64,000 bases of DNA from the NCBI GenBank assembly GCA_021792255.1, contig JAJYUZ010000003.1:256001-320000 (forward strand). Direction: 5' to 3'. Shown in pieces: positions 2,245 through 19,432 of this stretch (within the stretch, counting starts at the first letter, position 1; each line of letters starts with the position of its first letter). The notes beneath the pieces were generated by a model that saw only the letters and a program-made list of their open reading frames with translations, had not been told where the DNA came from and ran no database searches. This DNA is from Thermoplasmata archaeon (GTDB lineage Archaea; Thermoplasmatota; Thermoplasmata; Thermoplasmatales; GCA-001856825). The translations under genes and the position numbers were made by a program.

Positions 2245-2610
2245 TCACTTCGTTGCAATGACATCTATTTCCACCAAAATATCGTTGTTTGCAAATCCCG
2301 ATACTATTGTTGTTCTTGCAGGTGGGTCCGTCGCGAAGTACCTAGAATAAAGTTCGTTCATTTTCTGAAAGTCTTCACTCTTGGAGAGTTGGACTGTCAC
2401 CTTGACCACGTTCTTCAGAGTAAGTTCTCCGATCTCAAGGATTTTTGCACCTTCACCATTTCATTTCCAAACTGTTCCTCAAGGTTTGCGGCCCTGTTAG
2501 ATACCATACTACCTGTCCTGAGAGATACATAAAATTACCAGTGGCTACCGCATGGAAATAAGGTCCTGCATTGGCGATGTCTGAAACATTTATGTTTATG
2601 CATACCCATA
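2245..2610 (-). pseudogene. ridA: Frameshifted RidA/YjgF/UK114 family gene
   Basis: Minus-strand fragments in different frames: INVSDIANAGPYFHAVATGNFMYLSGQV and LKNVVKVTVQLS..FQKMNELYSRYFATDPPARTTIV..ILVEIDVIATK*. No single ORF spans both. Confidence 0.8.
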
Positions 2611-2774
2611 AGTCAGGTCCCGAAATTTAAGATTTTATTGATTTTGATATTTCTGTTTTCAATCGAGATTTTTTGACAGGAGTTTCTCGACAATTGTTAC
2701 GTCCTTCCATTCTCCATCAAGTTTACCGTGTTTTTAGTAGGTTCCAACTTCCCTGAATCCGACTTTCCTGAGAA

Positions 2775-3074
2775 GTGAACGACTTGCTGCATTTTCTACA
2801 AAGACTCTGGAAACAAGCTTCCACGGAACAGCCCAAGAATCAACCTGCACAGCAGAAACCAGTCCAGCCTCAGGGTGGCTGGAAATCCGAGGTTCTTAGG
2901 CTTCTCAACGAGTTCCCGCAGAATCTTGAGAGGAAATCGCAGTCCAAGATCCAGATTGTGAGGGAGATTCCAAGAAGCGACTGGAACATTGTGAAGAAAG
3001 GTTTTGAGAAGGAAGGGTGGATATACGACTGGAAGGAGAAGGCCTTCTTGATCTCCGAGGAGATGAAGGCATGA
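2775..3074 (+). CDS. Virus-like hypothetical protein (probably a C-terminal fragment)
   Basis: Q/P linker followed by compact domain ending GWIYDWKEKAF. Stop overlaps next ATG (ATGA 3071-3074). N-terminus looks non-coding. Confidence 0.55.
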   Translation: MNDLLHFLQRLWKQASTEQPKNQPAQQKPVQPQGGWKSEVLRLLNEFPQNLERKSQSKIQIVREIPRSDWNIVKKGFEKEGWIYDWKEKAFLISEEMKA

Positions 3075-3661
3075 CAGAAGAAAATGAGACTGCAGCCACT
3101 TCAGGTATTTACTATCAAATATGCCAAGAACGCCAAGATGAATGGAACGGCAATGAACTTCCATCTCCTTATCAGTCTGGCCCTAATGTAGAGGAGGATA
3201 AGGATGAAGTAAAGTCCAATGCAGGCGAAGAAACAAGGGACCGAGTACTTTATGTAAAAGAGAATCCAAGTATAGAAAGAGGGGTAGATGAAAAAGAAAA
3301 TGATGGGAAGCAACACGAGGATGAAGAAGTAGCCTGCAACGATCAAAGAGAAGGGCTGGAATCGGTTGCTCCCGACAAATTTAGCCCACCCTCTGCCCGG
3401 CTTCACCAGAAGTCCAAGGTAGCCAATGACGAGACCGGTAATGAGGATGTAAAGAATCTCAATCCAGTTGCTGATAAATTCACTAGACATTTAAGGAATA
3501 CCTTGGCAATATCATTTACAGCAGGTATAATAATTTCTTCGCTACTATCCACTCTCAGCTTCGATCTGGCCTTTATTGCTCTAGCTTCCGCTCTTGGCTT
3601 ATCTGGTGGACTGATTCTTTCGGAAGTCCTGTTTCTTGAAATAATGGAGGAAAAGGCATGA
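3071..3661 (+). CDS. Acidic protein with C-terminal TM helices (element gene)
   Basis: SD and ATGA coupling at both ends (3071, 3658). Start reassigned from 3017. Confidence 0.5.
   Translation: MTEENETAATSGIYYQICQERQDEWNGNELPSPYQSGPNVEEDKDEVKSNAGEETRDRVLYVKENPSIERGVDEKENDGKQHEDEEVACNDQREGLESVAPDKFSPPSARLHQKSKVANDETGNEDVKNLNPVADKFTRHLRNTLAISFTAGIIISSLLSTLSFDLAFIALASALGLSGGLILSEVLFLEIMEEKA
3101..3490 (-). CDS. Small multi-pass membrane protein, nested antisense
   Basis: 129 aa with about 4 hydrophobic segments and basic loops, entirely inside 3071-3661 on the opposite strand. Confidence 0.6.
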   Translation of the reverse strand: MSSEFISNWIEILYILITGLVIGYLGLLVKPGRGWAKFVGSNRFQPFSLIVAGYFFILVLLPIIFFFIYPSFYTWILFYIKYSVPCFFACIGLYFILILLYIRARLIRRWKFIAVPFILAFLAYLIVNT

Positions 3662-4275
3662 CACTCGAATCAGAAATCATTGAAATTTTCAGGACAAACA
3701 ACCTGAGGCATCTGAGCGCAGTTGTCACTTCTGACGGGCTGATCAAGGTCTCGATACAGGAGAGGAAACCTCCCAGAGTCAAGGGATTCGATCCGGCAGC
3801 ATACTATAGAAACAACAAGGAAAAAATCAAGAAGTACCAGCACGAGTATTATCTGAGGAAGAGAGGGAAGAACCAGAAGACAAGTATTGTCTCCGGAGGG
3901 ACTTATGTTCCGACTCCTGAAGATCTTGCTAAGGCAATGGCATCTCTCTATTCTAAAGATGGAACTGCTCTCAAGGCAGATGAACTCAGGGACACAGCTC
4001 TGCATGTGATGCAGTTCTTTGGGTTCGAGAGGGAGGTCGTTGGAAATCATCTGGAACCGGACGAGATATCGCTGATGTACCAGCTTGAGGACATCGGGCT
4101 GATAAGCACGAGAATAGAGGAACACAATCTCCTGGATGGGAAACCCTGGAGGGTCAACTACTTCATTCTCAATGTTGGGAAGATCAGGGAATATTCCTCA
4201 AAGACAATTGAAGGAAATTCAGCTGATGCGTGCCAGGTCTACGAGAATCTTCCAGAGGAGATGTGGGCGAGATGA
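3658..4275 (+). CDS. Element-encoded DUF6015-like protein with basic N-terminal extension
   Basis: C-terminal half aligns by eye with 19079-19432 (FFGFE..V.N.L...Y.LE..G..ST..E...L..GK.WR). N-terminus carries YYRNNKEKIKKYQHEYY. Confidence 0.75.
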   Translation: MTLESEIIEIFRTNNLRHLSAVVTSDGLIKVSIQERKPPRVKGFDPAAYYRNNKEKIKKYQHEYYLRKRGKNQKTSIVSGGTYVPTPEDLAKAMASLYSKDGTALKADELRDTALHVMQFFGFEREVVGNHLEPDEISLMYQLEDIGLISTRIEEHNLLDGKPWRVNYFILNVGKIREYSSKTIEGNSADACQVYENLPEEMWAR

Positions 4276-4436
4276 AGTATTTTTATTCAGATGCGTGCAC
4301 CCACAACCAGCACCCAATCTGCAAGGAGCAGGAATGCCAGTGCGGATGTCACTTCATTGCAAGAAACAACGGAATTACCCCGGAGGAGTGGAAATCCTAC
4401 CAGGCCAGGGTCGCGAAAGCGGAGGAATCGCTATGA
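4272..4436 (+). CDS. Small Cys/His-rich (Zn-binding) element protein
   Basis: MKYFYSDACTHNQHPICKEQECQCGCH; ATGA overlaps at both ends. Confidence 0.65.
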   Translation: MKYFYSDACTHNQHPICKEQECQCGCHFIARNNGITPEEWKSYQARVAKAEESL

Positions 4437-4732
4437 GGTACAATTGCTCCCTTGACTTCGGGGCTCTGGAAATAGACGGGATCGAGGCAAACAGTAGGGA
4501 GGAAGCCAGGGAAATAGCTATGAGGTCCTTCAAGCCGGTGATCCTCGCCATTGATGAAACAAGCATCAAGGCAACTGCAGGAGAAAGGAAGAGAAGACCG
4601 ATAATAGTCACTGGCCCAAGCACACTTGAGCCTGCCAAAAGGAAGGAATCTTCCAAAGAGATTTTTGAACGCAGGGTCAAGCGTTGCAGGTTGGTTGCAA
4701 AGAATGCTGAGCTGGAGACGGGAGTGAGGTGA
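4433..4732 (+). CDS. Virus-like hypothetical protein
   Basis: GGAGG SD and ATGA start at 4433; EANSREEAREIA resembles motifs in small phage proteins. The extension to 4136 is shadow. Confidence 0.6.
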   Translation: MRYNCSLDFGALEIDGIEANSREEAREIAMRSFKPVILAIDETSIKATAGERKRRPIIVTGPSTLEPAKRKESSKEIFERRVKRCRLVAKNAELETGVR

Positions 4733-4736
4733 GACA

Positions 4737-4850
4737 ATGAGCATGGAGAGCATTTTTCCATTTATCAAGAAAGAGGCAGACGACCGGATCGACGGGGAGC
4801 CAAACCTGCTGAGGTCACTGCTCAGGGTTATGGAGAGGGATGAGAGATGA
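4737..4850 (+). CDS. 37-aa ORF coupled to integrase
   Basis: GAGGTGA SD; MSMESIFPFIKKEADDRIDGEPNLLRSLLRVMERDER*; stop overlaps integrase ATG. Not in ORF track. Confidence 0.5.
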   Translation: MSMESIFPFIKKEADDRIDGEPNLLRSLLRVMERDER

Positions 4851-5815
4851 ACGGAGACCTAGGGATAAAATTGGAGGAGTACCGGATCTGGGCCTTAACG
4901 TTGGGACGCTACTCATCGTCGACCGTAACAAGGTCCGTGAGGAGGATAAGGGAGCTCTCGAAGGCGATCGACGTCCTGAGACCGACGCAGAAGCAGGTCC
5001 TTGACTTCTTTGCAAGGGAGGCAGAGAAGGGGATGAAGCCCCATACCATGAACAACCAGAGGAAGGACCTCGCGTCCTGGTTCAGGTTCCTGGGAATAAA
5101 GATACAGCTCCCCGTTTTCAAGGAGCCTCCTCTCCCGGATCCATGGATACCCACGGACGATGAGGTGAAGAAGGTGCTTGCTGCGGCGGAGAGGTCGGGG
5201 GACAGGATGAGTTCCGCTAGGAACAAGGTTATGGTCGAGCTGCTCTTCTTCGGGGGGATAAGGATAGGCGAACTGATCAAGATAAACCTCACCGACCTCA
5301 GGTCCAACGGAATAAGGATAAGGAGCGAGAAGGGCGAGGCCGAGAGGATCATAGGACTGCCCGGGAGCATCATGGAGGAAATAGCGGAGTTCGTGAGATA
5401 CTACAGGTACAACAGCGACCCTGCCGCATTCTTCACCACCAGGGATGGCAGGATGAGCTATTACTATGCCAGGAACATCCTGAGCCGAATCGGTGCAAGG
5501 GCAGGGGTTCCGAGGTTCCATGCCCATGCTGCAAGGCACTGGTGCGCCACTGCGCTCCTGAGGGGGATTTTCGGCCAAAAACCCCTGGACATCCGCATGG
5601 TCCAAATCCATCTGGGCCACAGATCCCTGAGGACCACCCAGAGGTATACTCACGTAACCCAGGAGGAAGTTGCGGAACAGGTAAGGGGGAGGCTCGCGGA
5701 CTTTTTTCGAGTCGATGAAGAAATGAATTTAGGCACGATGAAAGTCGAATCCGAACCAGAACCAAGTGGGGCTGCCCGGATTTGGACCGGGGTCACAGAC
5801 TCCCAAAGCCCGTAG
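4847..5815 (+). CDS. int: Tyrosine recombinase/integrase
   Basis: Catalytic set: GIRIGEL (R), SEKG (K), HAARH (HxxR), LGH, TQRY (Y). The last 16 codons lie antisense in tRNA-Pro. Confidence 0.93.
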   Translation: MNGDLGIKLEEYRIWALTLGRYSSSTVTRSVRRIRELSKAIDVLRPTQKQVLDFFAREAEKGMKPHTMNNQRKDLASWFRFLGIKIQLPVFKEPPLPDPWIPTDDEVKKVLAAAERSGDRMSSARNKVMVELLFFGGIRIGELIKINLTDLRSNGIRIRSEKGEAERIIGLPGSIMEEIAEFVRYYRYNSDPAAFFTTRDGRMSYYYARNILSRIGARAGVPRFHAHAARHWCATALLRGIFGQKPLDIRMVQIHLGHRSLRTTQRYTHVTQEEVAEQVRGRLADFFRVDEEMNLGTMKVESEPEPSGAARIWTGVTDSQSP

Positions 5816-5839
5816 GATACCAAGCTACCCCACAGCCCC
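5767..5839 (-). tRNA. tRNA-Pro(UGG)
   Basis: GGGGCTG/CAGCCCC acceptor stem, loop TTTGGGA. T-loop reads TCCAAAT instead of TTCAAAT; two G-U pairs in anticodon stem. Confidence 0.9.
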
Positions 5840-5882
5840 TTCCGACCTTATTTTCATTCGGTTTATATTCCTTTCCACGGGA

Positions 5883-6443
5883 TCAGTTTTTCATTTTCTT
5901 TTTTATTATTCTTGATATATTGTCCAGTACCTCTTTCCTTCCCCGATCCGCATTTACTTCAATACCAAAATTGAATTCTGTTGATTTCTTGTGTACCATT
6001 CTCGTTTCGTTTTCTCCAAGAGAGCTCCTCCTGGAAGCATCTCTTCGCATGCACACTTCCAGAGGGACCGCGAGTGTTATCACTATGCCCTCAAACTCTT
6101 TCAGCCGCCCAATCAAATCAAGAATAACACTCTTGTAATAGAAATTTCCGTCAAAAATTACGGGCAATCCGTTTTCAAGTTGCATCATTGATTCCTTCGC
6201 CGCAATTTCATTAACTCTCAAGAAACTCATTTCCGAAATATAGCCATCTTCCCATTCTTCGAGATTGAATTTTTCAAGAATTTCATCTATAGAGATGTGG
6301 TGAGCATTGTAATCTCTGGCTAATTCCTTGGAGATTGTTGTTTTCCCAGCCCCCAAAGGACCTCTGATTATGACGAAGAATGCTTGATGCACCTTTTCAC
6401 TACCTTGATTAATTCCTTTTAGTGCCACAACTTTCCCAGCCAT
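5883..6443 (-). CDS. P-loop nucleoside/small-molecule kinase (AAA_33-like)
   Basis: Walker A GPLGAGKTT; VIFDG; lid motif CMRRDASR. Confidence 0.75.
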   Translation of the reverse strand: MAGKVVALKGINQGSEKVHQAFFVIIRGPLGAGKTTISKELARDYNAHHISIDEILEKFNLEEWEDGYISEMSFLRVNEIAAKESMMQLENGLPVIFDGNFYYKSVILDLIGRLKEFEGIVITLAVPLEVCMRRDASRRSSLGENETRMVHKKSTEFNFGIEVNADRGRKEVLDNISRIIKKKMKN

Positions 6444-18981: not shown

Positions 18982-19078
18982 CTTTTGTGCTGTGAAGCTA
19001 GAAGAGAATTCATTCGATATGCCGCCTAGGACTTAACATAATTATAAATATGTCTTGGATTTAAACCATGAAATCGAG

Positions 19079-19432
19079 ATGACGGTTATTAAAAGGGAAG
19101 AGCTGGTCACTGCCCTGAACGTCATATTCAAACCGTCAGGAATGAACCAAAAGGAAATTGAGGAACTGGCAGACTATGTACTTAGTTTCTTTGGATTTGA
19201 AGACACGCTGGTGGACAACATACTGTCACAGCAAGACAGGGATGTATTCTATACGTTAGAAGAGACGGGCATTCTATCGACCAGCAGCGAAGATATTACC
19301 CTCATGAAGGGGAAGACCTGGAGAATTCACTACTGGCACATCAACGATTTGAAGATCAAGAACATCCTCAGCACGAGAAAAGAGGGTGAAGAGAATATCT
19401 ACGACAAGATTTTCAGAGAAGAGCTCAAGTAA
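19079..19432 (+). CDS. Conserved Thermoplasmata DUF6015-like protein
   Basis: LADYVLSFFGFEDTLVDNIL..DRDVFYTLEETGIL..GKTWRIHYW. Family assignment is from recall. Confidence 0.75.
   Translation: MTVIKREELVTALNVIFKPSGMNQKEIEELADYVLSFFGFEDTLVDNILSQQDRDVFYTLEETGILSTSSEDITLMKGKTWRIHYWHINDLKIKNILSTRKEGEENIYDKIFREELK

Follow-up and report, generated by a model that had tools for sequence, protein, structure and literature searches.

Phage Xis proteins are winged-helix proteins that control excision, and those of the lambda type are small basic DNA benders encoded beside a tyrosine integrase. Among archaeal elements that target tRNA genes, the pNOB8 type keeps its integrase gene intact, as opposed to the SSV type. 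The archaeal transcription factor TFE docks at the clamp of RNA polymerase. Passages of two reviews describe the Thermoplasmata as having neither TFE-alpha nor TFE-beta, and their RNA polymerase was concluded there to open promoters without such a factor (PMC4495717, PMC7289017). A direct action of an archaeal mobile-element protein on the host RNA polymerase is reported for ORF145/RIP of the Acidianus two-tailed virus (PMC5123050).

The locus studied here lies in a window of 64,000 nucleotides from a Thermoplasmata archaeon, by which we mean the whole stretch of DNA that was analysed. The open reading frame at 3658–4275 in this window, itself intact, is the hallmark gene of a family of small elements whose tyrosine integrase places them at tRNA genes, and its product belongs to a deeply diverged, element-specific branch of the DUF6015 family, which we call E-type. 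Like the pNOB8 type, the element encodes a tyrosine integrase, targets a tRNA gene and has an integrase gene that insertion did not disrupt, but it is very small (about 3.3 kb), and the only named families recognised in it are the integrase and DUF6015, with no replication, conjugation or capsid gene. The E-type protein is like lambda Xis in being a small winged-helix protein encoded beside a tyrosine integrase. It is, like ORF145/RIP, a protein of an archaeal mobile element, although its action on host transcription is only proposed; and it is the homolog of a host core family, whereas ORF145/RIP is not presented as a host-factor relative in the account given of it (PMC5123050). The features that the argument requires are the following.

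2418..2774, no strand: left junction of the inserted element; synteny with relatives stops at about 2417, and no gene or att repeat is recognised
2775..3074, plus strand: g1, 99 aa; tblastn matches in related elements, no Pfam or PHROGs match
3071..3661, plus strand: g2, 196 aa; 30% identity to a 190-aa gene of related locus L005, no family match (Pfam, PHROGs)
3658..4275, plus strand: element-type (E-type) DUF6015 protein, 205 aa; Pfam, alignment, model and clade support
4272..4436, plus strand: Cys/His-rich protein, 54 aa; recognised from its sequence, no Pfam or PHROGs match
4433..4732, plus strand: g5, 99 aa; 43–47% identity to equivalently placed genes of L005, L074 and L075, no family match
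4737..4850, plus strand: g6, 37 aa; 49–61% identity to equivalently placed sequence of L005 and L006
4847..5815, plus strand: tyrosine recombinase (integrase), 322 aa, intact; PF00589 (Phage_integrase) 92.9 bits, phrog_1 E 8.8e-35
5766..5839, minus strand: tRNA-Pro(TGG), targeted by the integration and forming the element's right end; ARAGORN
19079..19432, plus strand: chromosomal DUF6015 paralog B; Pfam, model, fold searches and neighbours

That the gene sits in a mobile element, as the initial annotation proposed, is borne out by several features of the locus. The last 50 nt of the integrase gene overlap tRNA-Pro in antisense, and g6 lies immediately 5' of the integrase, overlapping its start. 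The G+C content of the element is 51–56%, against about 44% in the flanks. A congeneric genome (G361, contig C1) carries the empty site, with both flanks and a tRNA that is 95% identical; the flank-to-flank distance is about 270 bp there and about 3.65 kb in the window, and the size of the insertion is about 3.3 kb.

The homology to a chromosomal gene also stands. Both open reading frames exist as first described, 19079 being the in-frame ATG of a longer frame at 19055–19432, so that paralog B has 117 aa from this ATG, which is the form in databases, and 125 aa from an in-frame TTG at 19055. It is flanked by an SIS/PGI gene and a UbiA-family gene. BLASTP of the element protein against the 19055 frame gives 61.6 bits (E 2e-17), with 35% identity over 103 residues and 2 gapped positions; the stretch that had been quoted as aligning without gaps is indeed ungapped. 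Membership in DUF6015 (PF19479), at first only suggested, follows from an HMM search, in which the element protein scores 40.3 bits and the 19055 frame 60.7 bits for a gathering cut-off of 27 bits. A third copy of 138 aa lies on another contig of the same genome (G000:C3). The family is a host core family, as had been supposed: in the class, PF19479 was detected in 298 of the 301 genomes sampled, among them all 200 of high quality, and in the phylum each of the 151 Thermoplasmatota genomes sampled contains DUF6015, in most cases with two paralogs on the chromosome, A and B. The literature searched does not mention DUF6015 or PF19479.

The element protein conforms to the family core motif, FFG ... 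N-x-L ... Y-x-LE-x2-G-x3-T-x2-E ... WR-x2-Y, and the A, B and E subfamilies agree, at 85% identity or more, in 16 columns of the alignment. Its identity to chromosomal paralogs A and B is 33–35%. In the same alignment the E-type replaces seven positions that are invariant in the host proteins: D57, D61-R62-D63, F65, H92 and W94 in the numbering of paralog B become G, E/D-I-A, M, N and F. A C-terminal tail of the form Y-x2-[LI]-P-acidic-acidic-x-W is common to the element protein, which ends YENLPEEMWAR, and paralog A. Cysteine is absent from paralogs A and B and occurs once in the element protein. The element protein is a distinct subfamily and not an ortholog of A or B.

Phylogenetically the E-type proteins form a long-branched clade, with support of 99 in a FastTree analysis of 137 rows and an SH-aLRT value of 100 in an IQ-TREE analysis of 56 rows. 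In the databases 72 clusters are related to the element protein, whereas DUF6015 as a whole counts 678 representative clusters, with clades that include fusions of 300–970 aa; all 35 E-type relatives pass the DUF6015 cut-off, and 17 columns are invariant among these 35 sequences. Of 401 class genomes sampled, only 2 proved to have an E-type copy. An integrase lies 3' of the E-type gene and on the same strand in every other locus that could be assessed (10 of 10, assessable loci being those with at least 400 bp of downstream DNA), and three of these integrases are at tRNA genes, for tRNA-Ala (L006), tRNA-Asp (L039) and tRNA-Arg (L081). The gene is thus no isolated recent duplicate, an outcome that the initial annotation had named as refuting its reading. 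A tree had been suggested for detecting a clade confined to proviruses; the separate clade tied to integrases is there, but the word provirus is not supported, no viral hallmark having been recognised.

So strict a linkage raises the question of a role in recombination, i.e., of an integrase accessory or recombination directionality factor that would control excision versus integration, or the expression of the integrase. In the window, as in each of the ten other assessable loci, the E-type gene precedes an integrase that has the same orientation, and such a role fits this arrangement at least as well as a role in transcription does. The pairing also persists although the integrases of E-type loci diverge to 26–39% identity, and in three minimal loci (L078, L080 and L081) the two genes lie 200–700 bp apart. 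However, what stays constant in the protein is an acidic winged-helix domain (net charge –7, pI 4.8), unlike the basic Xis proteins, and the one strongly basic helix is absent from many family members (those of 125–133 aa). No Xis or excisionase family in Pfam or PHROGs matches at E 0.01 or better, and the homologs of the domain form a chromosomal family that is universal and without recombinase linkage. We regard a recombination factor as an unlikely, though not a far-fetched, account of this gene.

The architecture of the protein bears on this and on a further alternative. Residues 1–45 form an alpha-beta-beta domain in the predicted structure, followed by a basic Tyr-rich helix at residues 46–75, a disordered linker, the acidic winged helix at residues 84–181 and the acidic-aromatic tail. 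The added N-terminal domain and basic helix, together with the constant neighbourhood of an integrase, set the element protein apart from the chromosomal A and B proteins. The Tyr-rich basic segment YYRNNKEKIKKYQHEYYLRKR, to which attention had been drawn at the outset, is present with a net charge of +8 over residues 46–75 and recurs in relatives in 1 to about 5 copies. An ESM Atlas search with residues 1–85 gave scores of 0.83, under the useful range. In the three subfamilies net charges range from –5 to –7 for the winged-helix domain and from –3 to –4 for helix 3. The helix in the recognition position is thus acidic in A, B and E alike, and because of this charge on the helix that normally reads DNA, docking to a protein would be likelier than docking to DNA.

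The acidic helix weighs against the element protein being an ordinary DNA-binding regulator or origin-binding protein, which would repress or activate element promoters or start replication through the basic Tyr-rich helix, the winged helix or both. The short E-type forms are without the basic helix, and three related loci (L005, L006 and L076) already encode a separate, divergently transcribed winged-helix regulator of the PadR/HxlR/HTH_45 type. What speaks for a regulator is the winged-helix fold itself, the strongly basic helix at 46–75, the extra N-terminal HTH domains in 5 of 33 long DUF6015 proteins scanned, and the lack of any recognisable replication gene among those of the element. 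On balance we consider it quite unlikely.

The resemblance to the winged helix of TFE-alpha, which had been put forward in the initial annotation, is supported by two independent models, one for the element protein (m038a81874817, pLDDT 72) and one for paralog B (m49c91d984b99, pLDDT 77.6). In Foldseek the TFE family takes ranks 1–3 for the element model (best E 2e-3) and ranks 1–8 for that of paralog B (best E 1.7e-3), with no E-value reaching 0.001 for either. The top VIA-align rows are the TFIIE-alpha entry 8byq_W and Pyrococcus furiosus TFE-alpha for both models, with Z 6.5 over 90–95 residues for the element protein and Z 7.2–7.4 with 95–100 residues aligned for paralog B, although Z values of 6.5–7.4 are in the range that the tool calls common and are within 1 of those for the Fur, PerR and ArsR winged helices. 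TFE-alpha/TFIIE-alpha (PF02002; PDB 1Q1H, 6XJF/6PLN, 6KF4 chain G, 5GPY) is the best and longest structural match of both models.

Profile comparisons point the same way. An hhalign comparison of B with Thermoplasmatota TFE-alpha gives E 2.3e-4 over 92 columns, and none of 150 column shuffles reaches its score; the hhalign probabilities of B, A and the E-type are only 44%, 2% and 0.2%, and helix 3 and the wing fall in one register in the alignments of all three to TFE. PF02002 (TFIIE_alpha) is the sole recurrent secondary Pfam family, found in 19 of 56 family members and 11 of 35 E-type proteins, where every other family occurs at most twice. Its scores for the element protein (13.7 bits) and paralog B (16.3 bits, E 0.0089) are below the gathering cut-off of 22.9 bits, the strongest match by any DUF6015 protein has E 5.8e-5 to 1.2e-4, and the same profile also matches ordinary TrmB/MarR-type regulators at 28–33 bits. 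One B ortholog is named 'transcription initiation factor IIE alpha subunit' in IMG. Nothing in the element's own genome exceeds the PF02002 cut-off or matches TIGR00373, and sequence searches of the PDB returned nothing for the A profile and only the TFE chain 6kf4_G, at E 0.66, for the B profile. Among the best PF02002 matches in the class, two loci were considered as TFE and set aside, one encoding a TrmB/MarR-type regulator and the other a 139-aa winged-helix protein, neither being a TFE with a zinc ribbon.

The predicted DUF6015 fold is like TFE-alpha in including extra helices at the N- and C-terminal ends, in having the motifs R-x2-[LF]-Y-x-L and W-x4-W in one register, and in the acidity of the domain. 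It differs in being without the zinc ribbon, which in true Thermoplasmatota TFE-alpha shows as C-P ... C-P motifs, and the family is found mostly as two chromosomal paralogs per genome plus an element-borne clade; the E-type moreover is without the conserved Arg and the second Trp. The two models, both structure aligners, the profile comparison and the sub-threshold Pfam matches agree in this likeness, and none of them is individually decisive. There is moderate support, from profiles and predicted models, for reading the DUF6015 domain as related to the extended winged helix of TFE-alpha/TFIIE-alpha but devoid of the zinc ribbon. True TFE-alpha, with 52–84 bits and a zinc ribbon, occurs alongside DUF6015 in about 9 of 101 genomes of the phylum, so DUF6015 is not simply its diverged ortholog, and a simple replacement of TFE by DUF6015 was likewise rejected.

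Gene neighbourhoods offer a further lead on the host family. An XPD/Rad3-type helicase (DEAD_2 + HBB) lies directly 3' of the A-type gene, on the same strand, in 15 of 30 loci of the class; these loci come from four families, and their helicases are 36–71% identical to each other. The host family could then act with XPD in DNA repair or recombination instead of transcription, with the element copy interfering with that pathway or borrowing it. The adjacency is, however, absent from the other 15 loci and from the element's own genome, in which C7 carries XPD and C3 carries paralog A. It is a feature of paralog A alone and is also compatible with a link of the TFIIE-TFIIH kind; we hold the repair account to be very unlikely. 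The neighbourhood of paralog A with ABCE1 was discarded as a functional lead, being present in the genome studied but in none of 30 other loci.

A role of the element protein on the host transcription machinery is a plausible proposal. The whole explanation, to which we incline tentatively while granting that it may well be wrong, is that an element-borne E-type DUF6015 protein with a TFE-like fold acts on the host partner of A or B in transcription. It would occupy that partner by means of its retained fold core and its acidic-aromatic tail, which is likewise conserved, and this is the weakest step. The replaced D-R-D, His and Trp positions, together with the basic Tyr-rich helix that many members, including this one, possess, would then give a different output, either by redirecting the transcription machinery to the genes of the element or by competing with the host factors. 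A mimic or dominant-negative, as suggested in the initial annotation, is compatible with the pattern of a retained fold core and tail and replaced host-invariant residues. If this is how the protein works, an archaeal mobile element encodes a homolog of a host protein that is like a basal factor. The altered copy of the element family is itself a naturally occurring variant, suited to finding out which surfaces are important, and Thermoplasma species are cultivable.

The observations can also be joined in a bolder way, which we put forward as a doubtful proposal. DUF6015 would have originated as a paralog of the TFE-alpha winged helix without the zinc ribbon, ahead of the loss of TFE-alpha and TFE-beta from most of the phylum, and it would now do the job of both at the RNA polymerase clamp, being the 'missing' initiation factor of the Thermoplasmatota. 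Paralog A and the XPD helicase would form a link like that of TFIIE and TFIIH, in archaea, and elements would have captured a copy that competes or redirects. Even short of this, DUF6015, being highly conserved throughout the phylum and matching the TFE/TFIIE-alpha winged helix best in structure and profile, is a concrete candidate with which to test the claim that Thermoplasmata have no TFE and open promoters without such a factor.

The gene 3' of the E-type gene may be relevant to the same proposal. The start of the 54-aa gene overlaps the stop of the DUF6015 gene (ATGA), and a counterpart is kept directly 3' of the E-type gene in L005, L006, L039, L074 and L075. With its conserved pattern, C-x-H-x2-H-x2-C-x4-C-x-C-x-C-H, the protein probably binds zinc; the captured copy and this separately encoded mini-protein would then make up a split TFE-like pair. 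The product of g2, on the other side, is acidic in its N-terminal part and hydrophobic at the C-terminus, where by eye there seem to be membrane segments.

The viral origin that had been assumed for the element is not supported. Capsid or packaging genes were not recognised, the only PHROGs match being the integrase, and neither IMG/VR nor the phage records nor the BFVD folds contain a relative of the element protein; a plasmid collection gave nothing relevant. One match in IMG/VR (L004) was dismissed, the only common feature being the motif KKYQHEYYLRRK, on a contig that by eye resembles a eukaryotic large DNA virus. With no viral hallmark gene and no relative in the viral databases, 'integrative element' fits better than 'provirus', though a small archaeal virus of a novel kind may be the source.

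The left end of the element is less regular than the right. By tblastn g1 is 82–83% identical to genes at L005 (7400–7903) and L006 (1107–1607), but only to their residues 81–168; it matches just the C-terminal 88 residues of a gene of 167–168 aa and is thus N-terminally truncated or replaced. Flanking attL/attR direct repeats were not found for the tRNA/att region with seeds of 10 or blastn-short, and the best local Smith-Waterman alignment has a score of 19, within the range of the shuffles (mean 16.7, maximum 24). Given the missing repeat and the truncated first gene, the element in the window may be immobile, and it may have decayed at its left end. One could go further and see the whole as a dead remnant whose DUF6015 gene has no current function in this genome, particularly as four congeneric genomes hold C-terminal remnants of an integrase beside tRNA-Pro and no RNA run is listed for the element. 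All seven open reading frames are nevertheless intact and tightly packed, with 4-nt overlaps at four junctions, and residues are strongly conserved within the clade, as the 17 invariant columns show, which makes a mere relic highly improbable.

The contigs of three DNA runs (X1, X4 and X8) show the element at single-copy depth, the same as its flanks, and none of the contigs of this strain is an excised or empty-site form. One contig joint, from 5879 to 6438, comes from strains without the neighbouring kinase gene; another, from 4173 to 4284, is weak, with sides of 30 nt.

The DUF6015 genes (Pfam PF19479) of the window and of the 1.59-Mb genome to which it belongs (11 contigs) are the following:

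3658-4275, + strand: element-borne (E-type) DUF6015 ORF, 205 aa
19055-19432, + strand: paralog B, a DUF6015 ORF of 125 aa when read from a TTG; started from the ATG at 19079, it has the 117 aa of the database form
Contig C3 of the same genome: paralog A, a DUF6015 protein of 138 aa

The initial annotation had described the first of these as a homolog, carried by a mobile element, of a host core gene represented by the second, and on these points our analysis agrees. The E-type protein matches paralog B with 61.6 bits in BLASTP (E = 2e-17, 35% identity over 103 residues), the segment quoted at the time aligns without gaps, and both proteins exceed the Pfam DUF6015 cut-off of 27 bits, with scores of 40.3 (E-type) and 60.7 (B). 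With paralog A, the E-type protein shares 33% identity across 121 residues, the C-terminal tail among them (E = 2e-25), and A and B are 41% identical to each other.

The host gene does belong to the core of the class, and indeed of the phylum. PF19479 was found in 298/301 sampled genomes of the class (a tally that counts G098 and G212, two genomes flagged unpublished with 2 matches each, which enter no other result) and in 200/200 of the high-quality ones, the three genomes without it being 61-78% complete. Most class genomes have two copies and those of family f9 have one. The phylum survey found the family in 151/151 genomes (high-quality, 124/124), compared with 0/14 control genomes of other groups. 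Among 1.84 billion representative proteins, a profile search retrieved 678 clusters at E <= 0.001. Paralog A is strongly conserved: it has 2,538 clusters in the database and is 55-60% identical to proteins source-named Thermoplasma volcanium and Methanomassiliicoccales-type archaea, and paralog B is more divergent (48 clusters). The E-type gene is a diverged branch of this phylum-wide core family.

The carrier is a mobile element, as an integrase, its overlap with a tRNA gene, raised G+C and an empty site in a related genome all show:

2775-5815, + strand: element of seven tightly packed ORFs, with 4-nt overlaps at 4/6 junctions
Last ORF, ending at 5815, + strand: tyrosine integrase (PF00589, 92.9 bits; PHROGs integrase), its final 50 nt overlapping the tRNA gene
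5766-5839, opposite strand to the integrase: tRNA-Pro(TGG)

The G+C content is 51-56% over 4200-5800 against about 44% in the surroundings. The congener G361 has both flanks and the tRNA with ~270 bp between them, where the window has ~3.65 kb, and its site is an empty site. In contigs of the DNA sequencing runs X1, X4 and X8 the depth of the element equals that of its flanks, which is consistent with a single integrated copy, and the left junction is covered without differences. The left end is unclean, since no att repeat was found at the element and only the C-terminal half of the 167-168-aa relatives of its first gene is matched, so the window's copy may no longer be mobile. That the E-type gene is itself a dead relic is one of the lesser alternatives.

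The tRNA-Pro gene is a recurrent insertion site, because four congeners (G381:C2, G385:C20, G353:C10 and G377:C2; loci L046, L040, L048 and L049) carry beside it stretches similar to the final 60-370 nt of the integrase gene, with the rest of the element absent, and because metagenome depth across 5446-5913 is 10-100x that of the flanks. Immediately to its right lies a variable P-loop kinase-like gene (5883-6443, - strand; AAA_33/AAA_18), which is present in G385, missing from G361, G381, G353 and G377, and bypassed by a joint of 5879 to 6438 in X1, X4 and X10 contigs. Directly adjoining the undefined left junction of the element, a RidA/L-PSP gene (2245-2409, - strand) is present only as its C-terminal third (Pfam positions 67-120 of 121). 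A further joint, of 4173 to 4284, occurs in contigs of three runs and leaves out 110 nt where the DUF6015 gene ends; its shorter side fits over 30 nt only, so these contigs are probably derived from related elements whose tail differs.

The E-type gene is not an isolated recent duplicate. Its relatives make up 72 database clusters, of which the full-length forms are 40-69% identical to it, while many 125-133-aa forms that lack the N-terminal part are 72-77% identical. All E-type rows fall in one branch with support 99 (FastTree, 137 domain rows clustered at 62% identity), and the clade has an SH-aLRT of 100 in an IQ-TREE analysis of 56 rows, in which the E label was taken from the FastTree clade; neither tree fixes the placement of the clade relative to A and B. 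We examined twelve other E-type loci (L005, L006, L039 and L073-L081). In 10/10 loci whose contigs extend 400 bp or more beyond the gene a same-strand integrase follows, the other two contigs ending too soon to judge, and the integrase 3' ends adjoin tRNA-Ala (L006), tRNA-Asp (L039) and tRNA-Arg (L081). Across loci, identity to the window is 26-39% for the integrases and 40-74% for the E-type proteins. A 54-aa Cys/His-rich gene overlaps the E-type stop codon, and the same order is found in five other loci. With the E-type query at E <= 1e-25, the gene was detected in 2/401 sampled class genomes, this one and one congener. We regard it as established that elements of this tRNA-integrating family have the E-type gene as their hallmark. 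Its strict pairing with the integrase keeps alive the main rival to the mechanism that we propose, namely an accessory role in recombination. The protein is unlikely to be an ordinary repressor of the element, because related elements already have a separate, divergently transcribed winged-helix regulator of the classical kind.

The suggestion that the element is a provirus found no support. Its relatives were found neither in IMG/VR, nor in 50,697 phage records, nor in 72,556 plasmid records; BFVD folds gave no relative at E <= 0.001; and PHROGs and Pfam named no family on the element beyond the integrase (the only PHROGs assignment) and DUF6015. These results justify the label 'integrative element' rather than 'provirus'. 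One low-G+C IMG/VR contig, which by eye resembles a eukaryotic large DNA virus, encodes a 94-aa ORF (L004:9026-9310, + strand) that has KKYQHEYYLRRK in common with the E-type basic helix, and the Tyr-rich repeat may be a short module of wide distribution.

In the E-type model (built with 35 relatives, pLDDT 72), a small N-terminal domain of alpha-beta-beta type is followed by a long helix that spans the Tyr-rich basic segment, then by a disordered linker and, at residues 84-181, by a winged helix. The model of paralog B (56 family members, pLDDT 77.6) has the same winged helix with an additional N-terminal helix and a long C-terminal helix. In Foldseek against the PDB the first three ranks for the E-type model were 7nvs_W, 5gpy_A and 7nvr_W (E 2e-3 to 1e-2), and the first eight for B were 5gpy_A, 7nvs_W, 7nvr_W, 7o4l_W, 6pln_A, 7o4i_W, 6o9l_Q and 6xjf_G, with 6kf4_G ('Transcription factor E') at rank 15. 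The titles of 6pln and 6xjf name P. furiosus TFE-alpha; the W and Q chains, like 5gpy_A, we take to be TFIIE-alpha/Tfa1. VIA-align (48,161 chains; Z < 8 is flagged as common) gave for the E-type model 8byq_W (Z 6.5, 95 residues aligned), 6xjf_A (Z 6.5, 90) and 1q1h_A (Z 6.1), besides Fur/PerR domains (Z 6.3-6.4, 66-78), and for B 6xjf_A (Z 7.4, 95), 6pln_A (Z 7.2, 98) and 8byq_W (Z 7.2, 100), with Fur next (Z 6.9, 79). The likeness to a TFE-alpha winged helix that had been suggested at the outset thus stands in part: the TFE family comes first, with the longest coverage, in 4/4 structure searches, but by margins of less than 1 Z unit, and no Foldseek E-value against the PDB reaches 0.001 for either model.

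Sequence comparison gave a similar picture. Seven of eight true TFE-alpha sequences from Thermoplasmatota loci (winged helix plus four-cysteine ribbon) were aligned as A3. In hhalign against A3, paralog B reached a probability of 44% (E 2.3e-4, 92 columns), A an E of 0.021 and the E-type alignment 0.32. Helix 3 and the wing fall in one register across all three, and the TFE-invariant R, Y, L, W and W are matched in A and B by the same residues, likewise invariant; the observed score was reached by 0/150 column shuffles for B and 2/150 for A. Against all PDB sequences the B profile placed the TFE chain 6kf4_G second of seven in the same register (E 0.66), and the A profile had no matches. When each member was run singly against Pfam (E <= 0.1), 19/56 family members and 11/35 E-type proteins matched PF02002 (TFIIE_alpha), including the window's E-type protein (13.7 bits, E 0.06), and every other family was matched by at most two members. 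The PF02002 scores of the window's proteins are all under the cut-off of 22.9 bits, and ordinary regulators of TrmB/MarR-like type in the class score 28-33 bits with the same profile. One B ortholog is IMG-named 'transcription initiation factor IIE alpha subunit'. On balance we lean towards the DUF6015 domain being an extended winged helix of the TFE/TFIIE-alpha type.

According to passages in Blombach et al. (2015; PMC4495717) and in a 2018 review (PMC7289017), Thermoplasmata have neither TFE subunit, and our searches are in line with this. The genome of the window has no PF02002 match over the cut-off, the best (18.2 bits) being an open frame that by eye is an Lrp/AsnC-type regulator, and no match to TIGR00373. 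Among 101 near-complete class genomes 15 exceed the PF02002 cut-off, with a maximum of 32.7 bits; the two best loci are not TFE. In the phylum, 13/101 genomes match at E <= 1e-5, nine of them at 52-84 bits, and 8/8 translated loci of these nine have the zinc-ribbon cysteines:

L065-L072 (genomes G422, G481, G407, G415, G449, G429, G434 and G418): true TFE-alpha

True TFE-alpha thus occurs in a minority of Thermoplasmatota families (9/101 sampled phylum genomes), so that the absence of TFE holds for the class of the window but does not extend across the sampled phylum. Six of the nine genomes were also surveyed for DUF6015, and 6/6 carry it. Since the two families coexist, we rejected the possibility that DUF6015 is simply a diverged TFE-alpha ortholog; it resembles an older family, paralogous or analogous, that was retained when TFE was lost. 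DUF6015 is already catalogued as a family without function, and neither 'DUF6015' nor 'PF19479' is named in the full-text literature searched, a scope outside which most subscription-journal papers fall. What we rate as new is a TFE-like winged-helix family that lacks the zinc ribbon and has an element-borne clade. A 139-aa protein of G119 (L059:1471-1890, - strand), also without zinc ribbon, has PF02002 as its best family (28.1 bits, above cut-off, positions 2-102 of 105) and could be either a MarR-like regulator or one more TFE-like protein without the ribbon in the class. Many proteins of 300-972 aa (P0252, P0260, P0286, P0349, P0386 and others) have DUF6015 as their C-terminal domain; of 33 such long proteins scanned, five have an extra N-terminal HTH (MarR/TrmB, HTH_3, HTH_31, sigma-70 region 4), and the N-terminal parts of most had no family match.

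The winged helix is acidic in E-type, B and A alike, with net charges of -7, -6 and -5 respectively and a pI of 4.8-5.0, and the helix placed for DNA recognition has a charge of -3 to -4. A Thermoplasmatota TFE winged helix is also acidic (-8). Such charges favour docking on a protein over DNA reading of the classical kind. A role of the E-type protein as a DNA-binding regulator or origin binder is a lesser alternative. Sixteen columns are identical across A, B and E-type, and seven host-invariant positions are systematically changed in E-type proteins (D57, D61-R62-D63, F65, H92 and W94 in B numbering). A C-terminal tail, Y-x2-[LI]-P-acidic-acidic-x-W, is common to A and E-type and disordered in the model. 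The extra basic helix of the E-type protein (net +8) is absent from the short forms, and in relatives has one to about five YYxxNxExIxxYQxEYY-like repeats. We infer a more specific form of the mimicry first suggested: the E-type protein would take the place of host DUF6015 proteins at their partner, and its altered surface patch would yield a different output.

In eukaryotes, XPD is part of TFIIH, which is recruited by TFIIE. A link to XPD is another lesser alternative. The genome of the window has no XPD gene next to its A-type DUF6015 gene. An XPD/Rad3-type helicase (DEAD_2 + HBB) lies directly 3' of A-type DUF6015, on the same strand and at times overlapping, in 15/30 class loci of four families (L008, L009, L011-L014, L017-L020, L025, L027 and L034-L036; e.g., L012:1423-3383), and these helicases are mutually 36-71% identical.
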